From Candidatus Woesearchaeota archaeon (GTDB lineage Archaea; Nanobdellota; Nanobdellia; SCGC-AAA011-G17; GW2011-AR20): 64,000 nucleotides of DNA. The DNA lies in NCBI GenBank assembly GCA_964359725.1, contig CAYHTT010000001.1, positions 14,618-78,617 of the forward strand, written 5' to 3'. Position numbers and translations under genes: made by a program. The first letter of the stretch is position 1; the number at the start of each line of letters is the position of its first letter. The notes beneath the pieces were generated by a model. The model ran no database searches. It saw only the letters and a program-made list of their open reading frames with translations, and had not been told where the DNA came from. Below, in pieces: positions 16,547 to 63,860 of the stretch.

Positions 16547-17116
16547 ATGGACCCTGATTTTGATACTAAAATAAGAGCTTCTTTTGCAAAAGTTAGGCAA
16601 GACATACAGATTATTAAAGAAGAGATAGAAAAGCTTAAAGAAGCTTTAATTTTACAAAATAAGTCTAATTCTACCTTAAAAGAGGACGTGGGCTACCTTA
16701 AACAGCTTTCAAATGAGCTAAGAAGCAAGATTTCAACTATTTCCATCGGAAATCGTAGGGTTGATGATGACGATCAACGATCAATGACAATGAATGACAA
16801 TGCCAAACAGCTAAGATTCCTGCTAGAAAACAAGTTTAGAAGCTTAACAGACAGAGAATTTTCAGTGTTTATGGCCATTTACCAGCTCGAAGAAGAGCAA
16901 GGAACAGTTACTTACCAAGATATGGCCAATAAACTAAATATTAGTGGAAGTAACCTGAGAAATCATGTATTATCTTTAATAAATAAAGGAATTCCCGTCG
17001 GAAAAGAGCGTTTATTCAATGGAAAAACCACCTTTTTTATAAAAAAAGAGCTTCGCAACCTTAATATTGTGGCTGATCTAATTGAGTATAGACAGCATAA
17101 AACCTTTAAACAATAA
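16547..17116 (+). CDS. Coiled-coil plus C-terminal winged-HTH protein (putative regulator)
   Basis: N-terminal heptad-rich segment (IQIIKEEIEKLKEALILQ...) and a C-terminal wHTH-like segment (LTDREFSVFMAIYQLEEEQGTVTYQDMANKLNISGSNLRNHVLSLINKG). Confidence 0.45.
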   Translation: MDPDFDTKIRASFAKVRQDIQIIKEEIEKLKEALILQNKSNSTLKEDVGYLKQLSNELRSKISTISIGNRRVDDDDQRSMTMNDNAKQLRFLLENKFRSLTDREFSVFMAIYQLEEEQGTVTYQDMANKLNISGSNLRNHVLSLINKGIPVGKERLFNGKTTFFIKKELRNLNIVADLIEYRQHKTFKQ

Positions 17117-17230: not shown

Positions 17231-17785
17231 TCACTTTTTTGATCTTACCATCCTTTTTACCATCTTGTCTAGGTAGAATACCTTCCTCCTTGCCTCAGTA
17301 TCCACCCTCTCACTTATATTAAAACCCATCTTTTTCACGTCGTTAACATGCCTTCTTACTGTTATAATACTTAATTTTAATTCTTTAGCAATATCCCCAT
17401 ATTCTAGTGGGGTTTCAGCTATCATTAATAATTGGATTACCCTTTTTTGAGCTGGTGTAAGTACATTTTTAAGCTTTTGAACGTTCATGAATGATTGATT
17501 TGAACGCTTGAACGCGATTGAACGTTCATGAACGATTGAACGCTCCTCCCCCGTCGGCTCCTCGTCGACATTTTTTTCTAAAATCTCCTTCATTTCCATT
17601 AATGTTTGCTCGATTTTATCCAGCCTTTGATCATGTTTTTCGTGCTTATCTTTAAATTGATTAAGAACCTTATCAATCAAATTCATATCTTTCTTTATAT
17701 TTGAGAAAGAATTATTTAAATTCGACTTTAATTTTTCGACTTTCCCATCTTTTTTTCTACCGAAGAACCAAAAAGCCATTAACAA
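17231..17785 (-). CDS. Coiled-coil plus C-terminal HTH protein, same architecture as 16547..17116
   Basis: N-terminal coiled-coil (LDKIEQTLMEMKEILEKN) and C-terminal HTH (LTPAQKRVIQLLMIAETPLEYGDIAKELKLSIITVRRHVNDVKKMG). An internal ERS-encoding nucleotide tandem repeat is also present. Confidence 0.45.
   Translation of the reverse strand: MLMAFWFFGRKKDGKVEKLKSNLNNSFSNIKKDMNLIDKVLNQFKDKHEKHDQRLDKIEQTLMEMKEILEKNVDEEPTGEERSIVHERSIAFKRSNQSFMNVQKLKNVLTPAQKRVIQLLMIAETPLEYGDIAKELKLSIITVRRHVNDVKKMGFNISERVDTEARRKVFYLDKMVKRMVRSKK
17477..17543. repeat. Intragenic tandem/palindromic repeat: five copies of TTGAACG, with TTGAACGTTCATGAA twice
   Basis: Read directly: ttgaacgttcatgaa tgattgat ttgaacgc ttgaacgcga ttgaacgttcatgaa cga ttgaacgc. 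TGAACGTTCA is a perfect palindrome. On the coding strand the repeat encodes reiterated E-R-S. Confidence 0.6.
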
Positions 17786-19575: not shown

Positions 19576-20079
19576 ATGATGTTAAGAATAATATTAGATA
19601 CAAACATTTATGGTTTCTTAATAAAAGAGAAAAATATTGATGACTTAAATAAAAAATTAAAAGAAAATAAAGATTTAAAGATCTTTGGTTATAAAGTTAT
19701 AAAAGAAGAGCTTAGAGATGTTCCTAAGAAACAAAAATTAGGGGATCATAAGTTAAGAACATTGTTAATTAATCTGTATTCCGATTTAATAAAAGAGCAG
19801 TATGGCAGATCTACAGAAATTAAAAAATTAGCAGAAGAATATTATAAAGAATTCAAAAGATTAGGTGGTAAAAGAGCATTTGGTGATTTAAAAAATGATT
19901 TTGAAATAGTTGCCTGTGCTTCCATCCATGATTTGGATATTATAATATCTGATGACGAGAAGACACTAAAGGGTAGAATAGCCTTAAGGTGTTATGAGAA
20001 TATAAATCTAAAAAACCACCTAAAAGTACCAAATTTTTATGGTTATGAAGATTTAAAGAAAAAAATTATTGGGTTGTAA
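19576..20079 (+). CDS. PIN-domain-like protein (putative VapC-type nuclease)
   Basis: N-terminus IILDTNIYGFLI, with downstream acidic residues (EEL, GDLKND, DLDIIISDDE) at PIN-like spacing. Confidence 0.4.
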   Translation: MMLRIILDTNIYGFLIKEKNIDDLNKKLKENKDLKIFGYKVIKEELRDVPKKQKLGDHKLRTLLINLYSDLIKEQYGRSTEIKKLAEEYYKEFKRLGGKRAFGDLKNDFEIVACASIHDLDIIISDDEKTLKGRIALRCYENINLKNHLKVPNFYGYEDLKKKIIGL

Positions 20080-20378: not shown

Positions 20379-21053
20379 ATGAAAATAAAAGAAATTCCCT
20401 GGTTTAATCGCCCTGGATTTAAATTAACTAGGAATGGTGTAAGTTCTTTAGATAGTGCAGAATTGTTATCTATTATTTTTGGAATAGGTAATGAGAAAGA
20501 AAGTGCTTTAGAATTAAGTAATAGATTACTAAAAAAATATAACTTAAACAAACTAGAATATTTAGGGTTAGACGAATTAAAAAAAGAATGTAATAATGAT
20601 ATAACTAAAGCTCTTAAAATTCTTAGTTTAATTGAACTAAGTAAAAGATACAATAAATTGATGAAAGGGGGTTATAATAGCAAAATTATAAGCAACGCTA
20701 AAGATGTATATGACATGTTTGTAGATGAGATGAGAAGCTATAGGAAAGAGGTTTTGAAGATTGTTTTGTTGGATACTAAAAATAAGGTTATTAAGGTTAA
20801 TGAGGTTTCTGTTGGGACTTTGAATAATTCATTAATACATCCTAGAGAAGTGTTTAAAGAGGCAATTAAGGAAAGTGCTTATTCTGTAATGTTGGTCCAT
20901 AATCATCCATCAGGGAATCCAGAACCAAGTAAAGAGGATATTGAAATGACAAAGAAAATTATTAATGCCGGAAAACTTCTTGGCATATTAGTTTTAGATC
21001 ATGTTATTATTGGAAACGACAGATATTGGAATTGGTTAGACAATCAATTTTAA
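20379..21053 (+). CDS. radC: RadC-family JAB/MPN domain protein
   Basis: Typical RadC N-terminus (LSDAELLSIIFGIG) and the JAMM motif HNHPSGNPEPSKEDIEMTKKI. Confidence 0.8.
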   Translation: MKIKEIPWFNRPGFKLTRNGVSSLDSAELLSIIFGIGNEKESALELSNRLLKKYNLNKLEYLGLDELKKECNNDITKALKILSLIELSKRYNKLMKGGYNSKIISNAKDVYDMFVDEMRSYRKEVLKIVLLDTKNKVIKVNEVSVGTLNNSLIHPREVFKEAIKESAYSVMLVHNHPSGNPEPSKEDIEMTKKIINAGKLLGILVLDHVIIGNDRYWNWLDNQF

Positions 21054-22910
21054 TTCTTTAGCTTTATTTTTAAAATATTCTTCAGTATCCTTATTCATAA
21101 AAAAAACAAATATGCCTTTGTGTGCTCTTGTTAAGAGAACCCTATAAATATTTTTAAGATGTTGAACAAATTCATCATTTCCTCTTTTAGCCATATTATC
21201 ACAAGAATTTTCTGGTTTTGCATACCAACTTTTATGTTTTTTATCCCATACTAAATCATTTCCAAATATAATACCCATATAATCAAATTCAAATCCTTGA
21301 GAAGTATATACAGTTCCTATTTGCTTCATACCAGAATCATCTGTAGCCCATTTCCAAAATACCTCTTTGTTCTCCCAAGGCATTTCAAAATCTCCTATCT
21401 TAACATCATTAACAAGAGACCCGTCTGTATTTGGTTTACTCCAAGGCCAACAAAAACCTGCAGTCAATCTTGCAGAATTTTTCTTTTCTTTATTTTTTTC
21501 GTCAATTATCTTTTTAAGTTCATGAGGTGAACTAACAATTTTAAATTCCATTTTAGTTTCTTTATCAGGTTCAATATCAGTACCTTCTTTTATCCCCAAT
21601 ATTTTTTCAATTTTTTCCAAATAACTCCCAGAACCGCCACATCTAAATTGAGTTTTAAGTTCTGGTAATTCATATACTTTTGCATTGAATTTTTTTGCAG
21701 CTTCTTTAATAAGGTCAACACTTCCTGTTTCTGTTGGTCTAACAACTTGTTGTTCATCTATGAAGAAGAGAGATAATTTTGCTGATCTAATTAATTCATT
21801 TATTTGTGGTTCTCCAGTTCTTAGATGCTTTGGCGTATATATACTTTCGCTTGTTTTTCTTATTCTATGTGCTTCATCACAAATGATAACATTTATTCCA
21901 TTTTCTTTATACTTTGATTGATCAACAAAACTATTAAAAAATTTGAATTGTTTTGCGGACCTTGTTCCAAGTATCTGCTTTAATGTATTTGTAAATGCTG
22001 ACGAACCTGTAGCATGAACAACATTTACCCCTTTTCTTAGTAATACCCCCATAACTTCTAGCGCAATAACAGATTTTCCCGTTCCCGGACCGCCTTTTAT
22101 AATCATGATAGCCTTTTCTTTAGATTTAGAAATTTGTTTTGCTTTTGTCATGATTGCATTATAAGCTGTTCTTTGTTCATCTATTAAATTAAAAATTTGC
22201 TGTTTATTTATCATTTCACTCGTATGATCCATTAATTTCTTTGAAGGTCGTAAAATACTTATGTTGAATCTTCCAAAAACACCCAATCCCGAATCCGATG
22301 CTAATTTTTCTATAAGAAAATTTCCAAGATTTATCATTTCTTGTTTTGAGAAAATAGGATATTCTTCAAGACATTTCTTAAATTTAGGAAGATATAGAAC
22401 TTCATTGAACCCTTTATTGTAATTATGACAATAAACACATGCACTTAATAATATTTTTGGATTTTCATCAAATACAGTTACAAAATCTTTTAAATACCAG
22501 TAATAACCTTCAGCTTGTGATGAAGGATGTGGAACTTCTCTCCAGCCTTTACCTATAAACGCTCTAATATTTCCTTCATTAAAACTATCTTTTACCGAAT
22601 CGTTAGACCATTGTTTTAATTCAATAATAACAATATTATCATTCCCTTGTTTATCTTTTCCAAATAAAAGAACATCTATTCTTTTTTGTGAATAAGGCAA
22701 TTCATATTCAATAATTATTTTATTTTTATTTAATGGAGTATTTTCTAAAACGGTTTTGACAAAATTTAAAGAGTTTACCCAAGACCTAATTTCTGATGGA
22801 CTTGCTCTTTTTTTGTAATACTCTAAATATTTATTAGAAATTTTATCAGCAACTACATTCTGAGAAACATCTTCTTTGAATTTTTCAACCACATTTTCAT
22901 ATAATCTCAT
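21036..22910 (-). CDS. DUF2075/Schlafen-like protein: N-terminal PD-(D/E)xK-like nuclease plus SF1-helicase-like P-loop ATPase
   Basis: N-terminal RIDVLLFGKD...NIVIIELKQW is a D...ExK restriction-endonuclease-like motif. The central Walker A (IIKGGPGTGKSVIAL) and Walker B/DEAH-like (VIICDEAHRI) are followed by the C-terminal SF1 motifs VYTSQGFEFDYMGIIFG and RVLLTRA. Confidence 0.65.
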   Translation of the reverse strand: MRLYENVVEKFKEDVSQNVVADKISNKYLEYYKKRASPSEIRSWVNSLNFVKTVLENTPLNKNKIIIEYELPYSQKRIDVLLFGKDKQGNDNIVIIELKQWSNDSVKDSFNEGNIRAFIGKGWREVPHPSSQAEGYYWYLKDFVTVFDENPKILLSACVYCHNYNKGFNEVLYLPKFKKCLEEYPIFSKQEMINLGNFLIEKLASDSGLGVFGRFNISILRPSKKLMDHTSEMINKQQIFNLIDEQRTAYNAIMTKAKQISKSKEKAIMIIKGGPGTGKSVIALEVMGVLLRKGVNVVHATGSSAFTNTLKQILGTRSAKQFKFFNSFVDQSKYKENGINVIICDEAHRIRKTSESIYTPKHLRTGEPQINELIRSAKLSLFFIDEQQVVRPTETGSVDLIKEAAKKFNAKVYELPELKTQFRCGGSGSYLEKIEKILGIKEGTDIEPDKETKMEFKIVSSPHELKKIIDEKNKEKKNSARLTAGFCWPWSKPNTDGSLVNDVKIGDFEMPWENKEVFWKWATDDSGMKQIGTVYTSQGFEFDYMGIIFGNDLVWDKKHKSWYAKPENSCDNMAKRGNDEFVQHLKNIYRVLLTRAHKGIFVFFMNKDTEEYFKNKAKELKLIV

Positions 22911-22911
22911 T

Positions 22912-23298
22912 TTATAACTCCGTATATTTCTTATTAGAACCTTTTGCTTTTTTTATAGGATATTTTTCTTCATTCTTTTTTAATTTTTTGTTCAATTCAG
23001 TTGTTAGGTCGATATTATATTTTTGTGCTAATCTTAAAAGAAAATATAAAGCATCTGCCATTTCTTCAGAAATATGCTCTCGCTTTTCTGTGTTTTTAAA
23101 CATCTCTTCAATTTCTTTTTCAGATTTGAATCTAAAATGTTCTAAGAGCTCCGATGATTCCGTTATTATCCCAATGGCTAAATCTTTTGCCCCATGAAAT
23201 GGACCCCAATTTCTATCTTCACAAAATTTTTTAATTTTTTCTTTTAATTCATGAATGTTTGTTTTATCATCCATTTTCTCTCCAATTGCAAAACACAC
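22912..23298 (-). CDS. MazG-like all-alpha nucleoside triphosphate pyrophosphohydrolase
   Basis: The EExxE / EExxD pairs (ITESSELLEHF and ISEEMADALYFLLRLA) are characteristic of MazG/HisE-type NTP-PPases. The start may be the internal Met at 23274, because the annotated start overlaps the upstream gene by 32 nt. Confidence 0.55.
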   Translation of the reverse strand: MCFAIGEKMDDKTNIHELKEKIKKFCEDRNWGPFHGAKDLAIGIITESSELLEHFRFKSEKEIEEMFKNTEKREHISEEMADALYFLLRLAQKYNIDLTTELNKKLKKNEEKYPIKKAKGSNKKYTEL

Positions 23299-23923
23299 AA
23301 TCTTTTCCCCTTTCAGGAATTTCTCCTTTTACTATTTCAATTGCTCTTTTAAATAACATTTCAGCATGTTTAACATCCACTTTCATCTTTATTAGTTCAT
23401 TCTTAAATTTAAATTCACCACTTTCCATAACTTGTTCAGGTAAATAAAACAATAAATAAGCATAATCCTCTGTTTCATAACCATTTTTCCTTAATAAAAA
23501 ATTATATATGTTTAATTGATCTTGATAATGATGAGCAGTGTCTTCCTTTAACGCAAATCCTCTTGTCTTGTAATCTATTACAATTAACTTATTTTCTTTG
23601 CTTAATAAATTATCAACTGCTCCATGCAATAAAACATCATTTTCCTTATCATAATATTCTACACCTTTAAGATTATTTCTCCATGTTTTTAATAAATCTT
23701 TATCTGGAAATAATTTAACATCTTTAAGCTCTTTTAATTCAGGTGGTAATTTATTATTATCGCGAAATCTGTCAAAATGTTCTTTAAGCATCTTATCTAC
23801 ACCAGAAGGTAAACTTGGAAATATTCCAGAAGGACGAGGAGTTTTTTTAACAACTTGCAGCCAAAAACATCTAGGGCAATCTTCTATTAAGCTTATTGAT
23901 GAGGGTGAGAGTTTGTAAGTCAT
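23267..23923 (-). CDS. Cas4/RecB-like PD-(D/E)xK nuclease with putative Fe-S cysteines
   Basis: HGAVDNLL...ENKLIVIDYKT gives the D..E.K core, and YQDQLNIY is the QxxxY motif of RecB/Cas4 nucleases. Cys pairs CPRC at the N-terminus and CVFC at the C-terminus could ligate a Fe-S cluster. Confidence 0.55.
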   Translation of the reverse strand: MTYKLSPSSISLIEDCPRCFWLQVVKKTPRPSGIFPSLPSGVDKMLKEHFDRFRDNNKLPPELKELKDVKLFPDKDLLKTWRNNLKGVEYYDKENDVLLHGAVDNLLSKENKLIVIDYKTRGFALKEDTAHHYQDQLNIYNFLLRKNGYETEDYAYLLFYLPEQVMESGEFKFKNELIKMKVDVKHAEMLFKRAIEIVKGEIPERGKDCVFCNWRENG

Positions 23924-23927
23924 TTAT

Positions 23928-24569
23928 TTAATATAATACTTTTAATATTTTAAACCTTTCTCTTATCAAAATAACTATCCAAGCAAAAAAAGCTCCAATC
24001 ATTCCTAATATCATATCTTTTTGAGCATCCCATTGATCCCCCTGCATCCCCAAGAAATTAGTTCCTATAATTTCACTTTTAGTTGTTAATAAAGACAAAT
24101 ATTCAATAACCTCATAAATACCTTTAAGTCCTGTAACAATTAAAAATATTATAAAATATAACCAAAACCCCCTAATCCCAACTTTCTTAGAAATAAATTC
24201 ATAAGCAGGAAAATAAAATATAAAACCAAATATAAAATGAACAAACCTATCATAGTTATTTCTTTCTAAATTAAAATTATCTTTAATTAAATCAAATAAT
24301 GGCACCTCAGTGTAACTAAAATGGCCTCCAATTGCATGCAAAACAAGCAATATAAAAAGCAAACTGTATGTAAAATTAGAGAATTTAAACCTTTTATATG
24401 TTAAAATCAACAAAAATACAAATACAATAGTAAGAATATTCTCATAAGCCCATGCAATCCTATATCTTGGATTAATTGCTAATAATATCCAAATAATCAG
24501 AAATAATACAAGCAAAAATTTAGAATAATCTCCCTTTTTAAAAATCTTCATAATTAAACAAGAACTCAA
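23928..24569 (-). CDS. Polytopic membrane protein, DUF2238 (YjdF)-like
   Basis: 213 aa with 5-6 hydrophobic helices. The HAIGGHFSYTEVP and RFVHFIFGF motifs resemble DUF2238. Confidence 0.5.
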   Translation of the reverse strand: MSSCLIMKIFKKGDYSKFLLVLFLIIWILLAINPRYRIAWAYENILTIVFVFLLILTYKRFKFSNFTYSLLFILLVLHAIGGHFSYTEVPLFDLIKDNFNLERNNYDRFVHFIFGFIFYFPAYEFISKKVGIRGFWLYFIIFLIVTGLKGIYEVIEYLSLLTTKSEIIGTNFLGMQGDQWDAQKDMILGMIGAFFAWIVILIRERFKILKVLY

Positions 24570-24570
24570 G

Positions 24571-24840
24571 TTAATATAAATTTACCTTATCAACAAGGTG
24601 ATATAATTTATCTTTACCTAAAGCAAAACTGCAAATATATTCTAAATTTGGATGTTTTAAAATAGCACCCTTAACATGTTCATAATCTAAAAACTCAACC
24701 TCTGCATTATAATCAGTTTTAAATCTTTCTAAATCAACTTTACTTACAGGTTCGCCGTTCATTCTATCAAGAAGTTGAGAAATACTAATATTAATATGAG
24801 AAATGCTTGTAACCCCTTTTTCTAAATTTTCCTGTTCCAT
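24571..24840 (-). CDS. Small hypothetical protein
   Basis: 89-aa ORF that immediately abuts the membrane protein gene. Confidence 0.35.
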   Translation of the reverse strand: MEQENLEKGVTSISHINISISQLLDRMNGEPVSKVDLERFKTDYNAEVEFLDYEHVKGAILKHPNLEYICSFALGKDKLYHLVDKVNLY

Positions 24841-24895
24841 TTTAAAGTAATCTATGTTTTTTCCAAAATATTAAAAAAATTACTAGAATTTAAAC

Positions 24896-25513
24896 TTAAC
24901 TATTTGAAAAGTTTAAAATTAAATTGCCATCTCTGCTAGGACTCATATAAAACTCACCTTCACCATCTCTAGGGAATAATTTTCTGTATTTAATTTTATA
25001 TAAATGTCTAACAATAAAATTTAAAGCCCTTTCATTAGTAATCCAATCTTGTTCAAATATAGATAAATCAATTTTAGCATAACCCCGTAAAGTTAAATCT
25101 GTTAAATCACTTGTAAAATAATTCCAATAATAAGGATAATAACTCATAACTAAATCCTTAATTGTACGAAATTTTGGTTCTCTTCCAAGCAAATTTTCAT
25201 CCCTTGATTTAGCAACACTACCAAATTTACCATCTTTCTTGTAAATAAATATATTATGATCTAAGTCACGAGCCTCTAAACAAACTATCAATGGTAAGTA
25301 ATTATGCTGGCTTAATATAGCAGCAGCACATAAAGCACCTTCTAAACAATCCGCTTTTTTTTCTCTAACCACCACTCTAAAAGATCTTTCAATTTCACTT
25401 TCATCGTCTAGCCTATATTCTAGCTCATTTACTAAAAAATCTTGTACTTTACTTGGGGTATTTAATTTACTAATTAATCTTAATTCTTTTGAAGTAAAAT
25501 TTGGTTTAAACAT
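24896..25513 (-). CDS. Hypothetical protein with a Cys/His/Asp constellation (possible papain/transglutaminase-like fold)
   Basis: ADCLEGALCAAAIL is followed by DLDHNIFIYKKDG. The Cys...His...Asp order is suggestive only. Confidence 0.3.
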   Translation of the reverse strand: MFKPNFTSKELRLISKLNTPSKVQDFLVNELEYRLDDESEIERSFRVVVREKKADCLEGALCAAAILSQHNYLPLIVCLEARDLDHNIFIYKKDGKFGSVAKSRDENLLGREPKFRTIKDLVMSYYPYYWNYFTSDLTDLTLRGYAKIDLSIFEQDWITNERALNFIVRHLYKIKYRKLFPRDGEGEFYMSPSRDGNLILNFSNS

Positions 25514-25564: not shown

Positions 25565-26377
25565 ATGCTTGATAAATTGCAAACTGAATTAAAAATAAGA
25601 GGTTTTAGCCAAAAAACTATAGATTCTTATTTGCTTCATAATAAATTATTCTTAAATTACATTAATAAGCAACCAGAGAATATAGAAGAACAAGATATTA
25701 AAAACTATTTGGCGTATTTAATGGATAAAAATTACAAACCCAGAAGTATAAGCTTAGCTTTAAGTTCATTAAAATTCTTTTATCACAATATTTTAAATAA
25801 AACTATATTAACTAATATTAAAGCTCCTAAACTTGATAAAAAAATACCAACAGTTTTAACAAATGAAGAAGTTAAATCTTTACTTAATGCTTTAACAAAT
25901 ATAAAACATAAGATATTAATTAGTTTAATGCTATCTAGTGGATTAAGAGTTAGTGAAGCTGTTTCTGTAAAAACAGATGAAATTAATTTTAATGATCATA
26001 CTTTAATAGTAAGAAGTGGAAAAGGTAAAAAAGACAGAATTACAATAGTTTCAGAAAAATTATTAGAAGATATTAAAGCATATTTAGCTAAAAGAAAAGA
26101 TAAAAATCCTCATTTATTCCCTATAAGAGATACTCATGTTACAATTAAATTAGCTCAAAAAATAATTAAACAAGCTGCACGTAAAGCAAATTTAAATAAA
26201 CGTATATATTGTCATGCTTTAAGATCAACATTCGCTACAAATTTAATGAATAATGGGGTTAATCTCAGGTTTATACAGAGTTTACTTGGTCATGCTAATT
26301 TAAGTACGACAGAGGCGTATACAAAAGTTAATACAGAAGAACTTAAGAAAATAAAAAATCCTTTAGATTATTTATGA
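25565..26377 (+). CDS. xerA: Tyrosine recombinase (XerA/XerCD-like integrase)
   Basis: N-terminal SAM-like core-binding domain. The C-terminal catalytic motifs are R (LRVSEAV), HALRSTFAT, LLGHANLSTTEAYTKV (HxxR...Y). Confidence 0.75.
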   Translation: MLDKLQTELKIRGFSQKTIDSYLLHNKLFLNYINKQPENIEEQDIKNYLAYLMDKNYKPRSISLALSSLKFFYHNILNKTILTNIKAPKLDKKIPTVLTNEEVKSLLNALTNIKHKILISLMLSSGLRVSEAVSVKTDEINFNDHTLIVRSGKGKKDRITIVSEKLLEDIKAYLAKRKDKNPHLFPIRDTHVTIKLAQKIIKQAARKANLNKRIYCHALRSTFATNLMNNGVNLRFIQSLLGHANLSTTEAYTKVNTEELKKIKNPLDYL

Positions 26378-27795: not shown

Positions 27796-27883
27796 GGGCC
27801 CTTAGCTCAGTCTGGTAGAGCACTTGAATAAAATGGTGAAGCTCTTAACCAAGGGGTCGTGGGTTCAAATCCCATAGGGCCCG
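27796..27883 (+). tRNA. tRNA-Lys(CUU) with a 14-nt intron at a non-canonical position (between nt 30/31 of the anticodon stem)
   Basis: Acceptor GGGCCCT/AGGGCCC, D-arm GCTC-AGTCTGGTA-GAGC, T-arm GTGGG-TTCAAAT-CCCAT. Removing AATAAAATGGTGAA gives the anticodon arm CTTGG-CTCTTAA-CCAAG with anticodon CTT. No CCA is encoded. Confidence 0.65.
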
Positions 27884-63771: not shown

Positions 63772-63857
63772 GCCCCGGTAGCTCAGTCTGGTAGAGCACA
63801 TGGCTGTTAGAGAATGTAGAAACCATGCGGTCGTCGGTTCAAATCCGGCCTGGGGCG
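63772..63857 (+). tRNA. tRNA-Asn(GUU) with a 12-nt intron at the canonical 37/38 position
   Basis: Acceptor GCCCCGG/CTGGGGC (one G-U), the same D-arm as tRNA-Lys, anticodon stem CATGG/CCATG, and T-arm GTCGG-TTCAAAT-CCGGC. Removing GAGAATGTAGAA leaves the loop CTGTTAA. An alternative excision giving Tyr-GUA is less canonical. Confidence 0.6.
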
Positions 63858-63860
63858 CTT

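Follow-up and report, generated by a model that had tools for sequence, protein, structure and literature searches.

Three overlapping genes on the minus strand of a 64,000-nucleotide stretch of DNA from a Candidatus Woesearchaeota archaeon (GenBank assembly GCA_964359725.1, contig CAYHTT010000001.1; the whole stretch is referred to here as the window) raise the question of whether they form one system, and of whether that system protects the cell from foreign DNA. The genes encode a Cas4-like nuclease (g1), a MazG-like nucleoside triphosphate pyrophosphatase (g2) and a nuclease-helicase with a DUF2075 domain (g3), and a sequence-only reading of the window had proposed that all three constitute one cassette and a candidate defence module. 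The three open reading frames (ORFs) were confirmed exactly where they had been placed (23923-23267, 23298-22912 and 22910-21036), with their overlaps and 1-nt gap, and profile searches agreed with the domains assigned to each protein. The conserved unit, however, proved to be the pair g2+g3 and not the trio, and this pair is most likely an apparently undescribed two-gene antiviral module, in which a nuclease-helicase of the Nhi type is joined by a nucleotide-pool enzyme dedicated to it.

The linkage of g2 to g3 was examined in 84 loci carrying g3 homologues, 4 of them from exact-protein look-ups and 80 from a set in which each species is represented by a single genome (36 archaeal and 44 bacterial genome records, g3 identity 39-77 %); loci are designated L001 onwards. 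A MazG-like gene lies directly upstream of the g3 homologue on the same strand, with a gap of about -7 to +80 nt, in 66 of the 79 loci that had enough upstream sequence to be informative (84 %), while one gene intervenes in four others and no MazG-like gene is within reach in the remaining nine. The linkage is kept at 31-34 % g3 identity, both on a Priestia aryabhattai plasmid, where the order is McrB-N protein, MazG-like, DUF2075, and in the record of Microcystis phage Mwe-JY31, in which, as in the single IMG/VR match, a TPR protein precedes the pair (with one extra gene between them in the IMG/VR contig). The reverse search, starting from g2, led to the close homologues P0125 and P0220, each of which is followed by a DUF2075 gene. 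In the window, the TAA stop codon of g2 (22914-22912) is followed after 1 nt by the ATG of g3, GGAG lies about 10 nt upstream of that ATG, and the two genes are probably translationally coupled. A protein identical to g3 is encoded on contigs of the Hainich groundwater 0.1-µm metagenome, and close homologues are annotated as Woesearchaeota or Nanoarchaeota. The g3 protein has 6012 homologues with E <= 1e-10, and among 185,579 species genomes the pair was matched at least 562 times, with a phyletically patchy distribution and near-identical copies in unrelated lineages. Viruses were considered as its main habitat and rejected, as just one IMG/VR match and four phage-collection records were found.

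The two partners do not diverge in step. Divergence from the window copies was weakly correlated between g2 and g3 (Spearman 0.38, n=70), and a close view of this is given by two loci, L090 and L091, that share the gene order of the window (SerRS, a small ORF, a Toprim gene, a 131-aa ORF and XerA, and, farther along, g1, a variable slot and a convergent RadC gene). In the window the slot holds g2+g3; in L091 it holds g2 with a different g3 allele, whose protein is 44 % identical to that of the window; and in L090 it holds a 184-aa ORF, an N6/N4 DNA methylase (1.8e-61), a ParB_N protein and a DUF4062 protein, with RadC present and the pair absent. When L091 (6001-9566) was aligned with the window (20385-23923), DNA identity was 0.77-0.85 in g1 and 0.91 in g2, and dropped at precisely the g2/g3 junction to about 0.55, against a background of 0.67 in XerA. 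Judged by these identities, L091 is a mosaic in which the g3 allele has been swapped and g2 kept, and across the family the partners have been exchanged repeatedly while their adjacency was kept. We take retention of adjacency despite partner exchange as evidence of selection for the pairing, and the g2+g3 pair is very probably the functional unit. Its behaviour is that of accessory, horizontally exchanged genes, and the pair would move between lineages as cargo inserted into variable slots of this kind.

The Cas4-like gene has a different history. The g1 protein is a RecB-like nuclease (Pfam PDDEXK_1, 7.5e-14, 52.7 bits against a cutoff of 22) in which 83-84 of 84 homologues share C16/C19, D104, D117-x-K119, Q136-xxx-Y140 and C209/C212, so that the QxxxY and paired CxxC motifs first pointed out in it stand, although the catalytic acid is D117 (of DYK) and not the glutamate that had been marked. 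It falls short of a Cas4 assignment, since it reaches 32.6 bits against the cutoff of 65 for the TIGR00372 equivalog and matches the PADLOC Cas4 models at just 1e-10. Canonical Cas4 proteins hold their Fe-S cluster with one N-terminal and three C-terminal cysteines, whereas g1 has a 2+2 pattern, CxxC (16, 19) and CxxC (209, 212), in 83 of 84 homologues. Nor is it associated with CRISPR or cas genes: a repeat search found no CRISPR-like array anywhere in the 64-kb window, as had been stated for its vicinity, and the genes adjoining 80 of its homologues encode methyltransferases, HsdR, Vsr and transposases.

A true three-component system of DPANN archaea, in which the Cas4-like nuclease, MazG and DUF2075 proteins act together, therefore had to be weighed. 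In its favour, g1 and g2 are probably co-translated in the window, given that they overlap by 8 nt (ATGGATGA) and that a Shine-Dalgarno-like GGAGAG is present. This overlap is measured from the ATG at 23274, which is the more likely start of g2 because the resulting 120 aa is the length of nearly all homologues and GGAGAG lies 4 nt upstream; the longest ORF, 128 aa from a GTG at 23298, would overlap g1 by 32 nt. The order g1-g2-g3 is found in L001, L007, L016, L038 and L056, and also in L091 and L102. In 15 of 83 loci (the number over which all neighbour counts were taken) g3 has a g1-like gene nearby, at up to about 4 kb upstream or 3 kb downstream, which we judge to be above the chance expectation for one gene, and weaker relatives of g1 lie near the pair in the bacterial loci L029, L036 and L037. 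The exact window arrangement, however, accounts for just 5 of the 83 g3 loci (the first five named), all of them DPANN, and elsewhere g1 lies at varying distances from the pair and in either orientation. Neighbourhood conservation across archaea and bacteria therefore held for g2+g3 and failed for g1, which is missing from 68 of 83 pair loci, including those with g3 at 77 % identity (L005, L006) and the P0220 lineage. The reverse test gave the same picture: among 80 metagenomic loci with g1 homologues of 35-87 % identity, five carry MazG or DUF2075 and 75 lack the pair, among them the closest homologues, which are 85-87 % identical and have 4-6 kb of flanking sequence. The close packing that had been taken as a sign of co-translation from one transcript is real, but it is not special to the trio. 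Three unrelated genes upstream (24896-25513, 24571-24840 and 23928-24569) are co-directional with g1 at gaps of 55, 1 and 4 nt, the minus-strand transcription unit probably comprises six genes, and packing this tight reflects a compact genome; the same three genes are absent from the syntenic locus L091. We therefore consider a three-gene system improbable, and its obligate form is largely refuted.

What lies beside g1 elsewhere suggests another role for its position. Its commonest neighbour is an N6/N4 methylase (13 loci, directly downstream in 10), followed by Eco57I-type methylases (6 loci), C5 methylases (5 loci), HsdR, Vsr and a transposase. Since the neighbours are mostly of these kinds, the position beside g1 is a hotspot for restriction-type cargo in these archaea, and g1 itself, a DPANN gene with a distribution of its own, flanks a variable slot, is co-transcribed with the pair here and is at most its facultative partner. 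Alternatively, g1 may itself work with the adjacent methylases instead of marking the hotspot.

The effector of the pair would be g3. Its C-terminal part (aa 266-604) matches Pfam PF09848 (SLFN-g3_helicase/DUF2075) at 4.1e-81 and 273 bits against a cutoff of 24, over model positions 1-352 of 354, and carries the helicase motifs GGPGTGKS (Walker A), CDEAH (Walker B), QFRCGGS and YTSQGFEFD. Across 59 homologues D79, E97-x-K99, GGPGTGK (273-279), CDEAHR (344-349) and several DUF2075 motifs are invariant, which bears out the nuclease-like and P-loop motifs first noted in this protein. The N-terminal core runs from D79 and E97-x-K99 through Q132-xxx-Y136, of which Q132 and Y136 are invariant, to CxxCH at 158-162, with all positions invariant or at least 90 % conserved in the same 59 sequences, and corresponds to the D…ExK…QxxxY set of the RecB type. 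In the AlphaFold model (predicted local distance difference test score, pLDDT, 84.6) this region has a predicted strand-strand-strand-helix-strand topology with pLDDT of about 90 in the full-length protein, which is compatible with a PD-(D/E)xK nuclease. The nuclease fold was not confirmed by structure, as a fold search with the isolated domain was uninformative, and a profile search of the N-terminal region against PDB sequences found nothing; matches to NERD (7.5e-4, below cutoff) and to the PADLOC NERD+UvrD model (2e-4) were weak. An hhalign comparison of this region with the g1 profile was not significant (probability 1.3 %), although the motif registers coincide, and a sequence search of PDB returned no relatives of g3 or g1. 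The motor has an SF1B (helicase superfamily 1B) fold closest to SLFN11, RecD2 and Dda, with SLFN11 as the top Foldseek match (1.4e-10).

Among defence models, the window protein matches PDC-S41 (1e-22; 78 bits in three stretches) and AbiO (7e-15) in PADLOC, and two of its relatives, L025 and L091, match the Nhi model at 1e-11 and 1e-14, in the helicase N-lobe only. Such scores point to kinship with defence proteins, not to membership in their families, and together with the genomic context they leave the defence role proposed for the locus plausible. A RecD paralogue had been named as one of the housekeeping identities that would speak against that role, and g3 as RecD2 scores 18.5 bits against the TIGR01448 cutoff of 500. 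A further feature is a C-terminal Peptidase_S24 domain of the LexA/UmuD type on 19 of 83 g3 homologues, all bacterial and about 795 aa long, from Omnitrophota, Bacillota, Nitrospirota, Burkholderiales and others. The GxSM serine, the lysine and an AxG-like cleavage site align with those of LexA, and this alignment suggests that the domain may act as a switch operated by RecA-stimulated self-cleavage. Separately, tandem DUF2075 paralogues were seen in L178 (Hymenobacter canadensis plasmid NZ_CP114769.1, 2904-6890) and in L043 (120-4496); the Hymenobacter genes adjoin a site-specific DNA methyltransferase and a DUF4747 protein, and no MazG is annotated near them in the plasmid gene table, which is incomplete.

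The partner, g2, is a MazG-like protein (Pfam PF12643, 4.6e-15, 56 bits against a cutoff of 27) that aligns end to end with dCTP pyrophosphatase 1 (DCTPP1; PDB 6sqw, 1.2e-15) and has no matching PADLOC model. The acidic signature recognised at the outset is its metal site, E47-xx-E50 and E79-xx-D82, which is invariant or nearly so in 76 homologues and aligns with the DCTPP1 equivalents. In the same homologues R29, W31, H35, E53, K105, N109, Y113-P114 and K124-Y125 are conserved and identical in DCTPP1, the exception among family-conserved residues being K38, which is Arg in DCTPP1. As the catalytic residues are invariant, enzymatic activity and not mere binding is under selection. Other family assignments were rejected: HisE (PRA-PH), which had likewise been named as an identity that would count against a defence role, reached 20.8 bits against a cutoff of 21.3 and lacked a his-operon context, dUTPase_2 (dimeric dUTPase) reached 20.8 against 22.9, and TIGR03188 reached 18.7 against 42.7.

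In L170 (3439-7834), the g2 homologue P0180 (78 % identical) is followed by an unrelated 448-aa protein in place of DUF2075. This protein had no Pfam or PADLOC match, an hhalign probability of 0.6 % rejected it as a degenerate DUF2075, and the locus is flanked by an HNH_5 gene, a PDC-S69-like PD-(D/E)xK protein and Kiwa KwaA. It is thus possible that the MazG-like gene serves more than one effector.

These properties bear on a toxin-antitoxin or abortive-infection scheme, in which the nuclease-helicase would be a toxin restrained either by the MazG-like protein itself or by some nucleotide that MazG clears away, until infection released it and the cell was killed or arrested. A small upstream gene translationally coupled to a large downstream effector, the AbiO match of g3, the ParE-like and AbiEii modules near several loci, and a reshuffling of partners that resembles toxin-antitoxin modularity would all suit such a scheme. 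We nevertheless regard it as quite unlikely, because nine g3 loci have no MazG within reach, a g2 homologue is also paired with the unrelated 448-aa protein, and selection on g2 acts on enzyme activity.

The neighbours of the pair were surveyed by assumption-free clustering of all ORFs around the 83 loci and by a census of the 136 immediately flanking genes, and restriction-type genes are frequent among them. SRA-HNH nucleases occur in 9 loci, mostly directly downstream; MTaX1-HNH_2 nucleases in 6 and other HNH_2 nucleases in 3; and type IV enzymes (PLD-helicase-DUF3427, mREase) in 2. BrxP, AbiEii and PDC-S01 are single cases, ParE-like pairs are also found, and Kiwa KwaA lies beside a g2 homologue. 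On the Priestia aryabhattai plasmid (L179, NZ_CP083270.1, 1667-11842) the pair lies within a clear defence island, where a restriction endonuclease, MutT and a McrB-N-domain protein (1.5e-51) that overlaps the MazG-like gene precede DUF2075, and a type I restriction-modification system and a restriction-associated AAA ATPase follow it. The nuclease companions share a theme, the recognition of modified cytosine, which fits a DCTPP1-type partner. RadC, first read as mere surroundings, is itself a recurrent neighbour, found in 12 of 83 loci and so about as often as the Cas4-like gene. It stands inside the operon in seven of them (L022, L024, L028, L032, L035, L036 and L037), in the order RadC-MazG-DUF2075 or MazG-RadC-DUF2075, and the hosts include Gammaproteobacteria, Doudnabacteria, Patescibacteria and Bathyarchaeia. 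RadC is convergent with the pair in the DPANN relatives L001 and L005-L007, with an equivalent layout in L172-L177, and in the window it overlaps the 3' end of g3 by 18 nt. RadC and the pair may be functionally linked.

Taken together, these observations lead us to lean towards g2+g3 as a two-gene, Nhi-like defence module with a dedicated pyrophosphatase for dCTP or modified dCTP. The broader statement that the pair acts against viruses or other mobile genetic elements seems to us somewhat probable, and the specific model built on modified dCTP is doubtful. Under the favoured reading, g3 would load on foreign, replicating or already-nicked DNA, adjoining modification-dependent nucleases would make the first cut, and g3 would degrade the DNA processively with ATP, so that the module would restrict invading DNA as Nhi does. 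The g2 protein, which may physically interact with g3, would hydrolyse dCTP-type nucleotides, above all base-modified ones, as suggested by DCTPP1, for which 5-methyl-dCTP is a substrate and which a review describes as selectively hydrolysing abnormal triphosphates derived from cytosine (PMC4491611, PMC13510388). Policing the nucleotide pool in this way could starve a virus of the modified dNTP that protects its DNA, or it could keep modified nucleotides released from degraded viral DNA out of the host chromosome, where their reuse would expose the host to co-resident modification-dependent nucleases. An extended form of the proposal appears unlikely: here the pair would be a pan-domain antiviral module whose halves are prokaryotic counterparts of human DCTPP1 and an SLFN11-type helicase, with g2 policing base-modified dCTP (5-methyl, 5-hydroxymethyl and similar) and so blocking either protected viral DNA or host re-use of viral nucleotides, g3 destroying exposed DNA, and the LexA-like domain in a quarter of carriers tying activation to RecA-coated single-stranded DNA.

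Several points weigh against a defence function. The substrate preference of g2 is an extrapolation from mammalian DCTPP1. The PDC-S41 and AbiO matches cover parts of g3 only, and the window protein gives no match to the PADLOC Nhi model at E <= 0.01. For a defence gene, g3 is conserved to an unusual degree (mean column identity 71 % in the 59 sequences, from several phyla), most of the 136 genes immediately beside the pair have functions other than defence (proteasome, permeases, ExoVII and others), and the window locus itself lies in the core chromosome near Cdc6/PolD. RadC, the MutT neighbour and the LexA-like fusions fit a DNA-damage role equally well. The main rival, and a credible one, is genome maintenance, in which the pyrophosphatase would clean damaged or non-canonical dNTPs from the pool and the nuclease-helicase would process stalled forks or damaged DNA, under RecA/SOS control in some lineages. 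The strong conservation of g3, its S24 fusions, the recurrence of RadC, the MutT gene adjoining the Priestia copy and the core-chromosome setting are all in keeping with such a role, DCTPP1 is a house-cleaning enzyme (PMC13510388), and SLFN11, the best structural match of the motor, responds to replication stress, at least as summarised in PMC6765204. Against a maintenance function, the pair is dispensable in the closely syntenic L090, occurs patchily among phyla although unrelated lineages can carry near-identical copies, has swapped partner alleles, is carried on plasmids and in a phage record, and has restriction-type nucleases, not repair genes, as recurrent neighbours. We therefore hold genome maintenance to be rather unlikely and retain the defence module as our working interpretation.

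The coordinates of the features discussed are collected in the following table.

Features of the window and of related loci. Unless a locus is named, positions are those of the window.
Feature	Location	Strand	Description
g1	23267..23923	-	218 aa; Cas4-like PDDEXK_1 nuclease with CxxC...CxxC
g2	22912..23274	-	DCTPP1-like all-alpha NTP pyrophosphatase, MazG-like PF12643; first gene of conserved pair
g3	21036..22910	-	624 aa nuclease-helicase; second gene of conserved pair
g3, putative nuclease core (PD-(D/E)xK, RecB/NERD-like)	22416..22733	-	aa ~60-165
g3, SF1B-type helicase/ATPase (DUF2075)	21099..22115	-	aa 266-604
RadC (JAB domain)	20379..21053	+	NCBIfam RadC 204 bits, cutoff 180
Three genes upstream of g1 in the same direction (205 aa, 89 aa, DUF2238 membrane protein)	23928..25513	-	context, outside module
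XerA, archaeal chromosome-dimer-resolution recombinase	25565..26377	+	NCBIfam recomb_XerA_Arch 254 bits, cutoff 220; housekeeping context
g1-adjacent methyltransferase/restriction genes, DPANN contigs	L087 6798-7613; L090 6664-10101; L092 2836-3891, 7619-7966; L108 2-3025; L132 4721-6220		
RadC-containing operons	L022 297-3216; L028 2210-5110; L032 4947-7857; L035 4840-7854; L036 678-3632; L037 4877-7869		
S24-bearing g3 homologues	L025 2070-4460; L027, L029-L031, L033, L034, L040-L045, L054, L058, L071, L073, L074, L078		

The wider surroundings had been described as an accessory stretch with a tyrosine recombinase and a PIN-like gene, and this description did not hold. The locus is set among core chromosomal genes (topoisomerase, SerRS, LonB, Cdc6/Orc1 and the PolD small subunit), GC content is flat at about 28 % throughout the window with no compositional island, and the recombinase passes the archaeal XerA equivalog, a housekeeping enzyme that is syntenic in L089-L091; on these grounds a mobile element was rejected. 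The supposed PIN-like gene (19576-20079; 167 aa, start MMLRIILDTN) had no significant match in Pfam, NCBIfam or PADLOC, and a 42 % identical copy of it lies at the equivalent position in L007. Elsewhere in the window, two tRNA genes of 87-88 nt (27796-27883 and 63772-63858; Rfam 54 and 57 bits), to which ARAGORN assigns no anticodon, probably encode archaeal tRNAs with introns. A 22-nt direct repeat, TTGAACGTTCATGAAYGATTGA, with 41-nt spacing lies at 17477-17539 within a 184-aa ORF (17231-17785) that faces a 189-aa ORF (16547-17116), and both ORFs are weakly HTH_11-like.

A search of the literature library at hand found no paper describing a MazG-DUF2075 pair or naming DUF2075 together with MazG, and none for MazG with Schlafen and phage or for PDC-S41; MazG with Nhi and defense returned only irrelevant abstract books. 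A 2026 DefensePredictor study listed MazG among domains predicted, not validated, as defensive (PMC13092281), and a 2019 study reported that NTPases with DUF2075 occur next to modification-dependent enzymes of the DUF3427 type (PMC6765204). A defensive pair would be a widespread two-gene system of both prokaryotic domains that joins nucleic-acid degradation of the Nhi type with nucleotide-pool manipulation, so far described separately, and the MazG-type genes flagged as defensive by machine learning would acquire their first function. As each partner has a human homologue (DCTPP1 for one, Schlafen group III for the other), the pair would also bear on the question of whether the human proteins derive from a common immune module, and DPANN archaea keep a variable defence slot beside a conserved Cas4-like gene. 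Cultured carriers, namely Parageobacillus caldoxylosilyticus NBRC 107762 (L064) and Priestia aryabhattai NM1_A2 with plasmid NZ_CP083270.1, allow direct testing.

Among known systems, the nearest to g3 are Nhi (SERP2475 of Staphylococcus epidermidis) and the Nhi-like proteins (Millman et al. 2022), which are PD-(D/E)xK + DUF2075 proteins, Nhi being phage-protective and, according to its authors, possessing both nuclease and bipolar helicase activities (10.1101/776245; 10.1101/2022.05.11.491447). On the evidence of its motifs, g3 would share this plan of an N-terminal PD-(D/E)xK nuclease and an SF1B DUF2075 helicase, and Dda, Upf1 and Dna2 are the closest structural relatives of both proteins (10.1101/776245). 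Nhi and Nhi-like proteins, however, are described as stand-alone, whereas g3 has its MazG-like neighbour in most loci. PDC-S41 is the best PADLOC match of g3, and in L025 the model also aligns with N-terminal aa 3-313, suggesting a shared architecture, but the fragmentary match of the window protein is low against the 5.6e-49 of a true member that lies beside one locus. To our knowledge PDC-S41 is an unvalidated candidate, and both it and the lactococcal AbiO are filed as single-gene entries without a pyrophosphatase. The human Schlafen group III proteins (SLFN11, SLFN14) share the PF09848 helicase with g3 at an identity of about 12 %, and their N-terminal nuclease is a different domain. DCTPP1 (RS21-C6 in mammals) shares with g2 its full length and the motifs ExxE, ExxD, RxWxxFH, NxxxYP and KY, but it is a stand-alone housekeeping enzyme, whereas the g2 gene is tied to a nuclease-helicase. 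The nucleotide-depletion defences, dCTP deaminase and dGTPase, likewise place a nucleotide-pool enzyme in an antiviral context, but they are single-enzyme effectors, and the pyrophosphatase of the g2+g3 pair is instead the small partner of a putative DNA-degrading motor.

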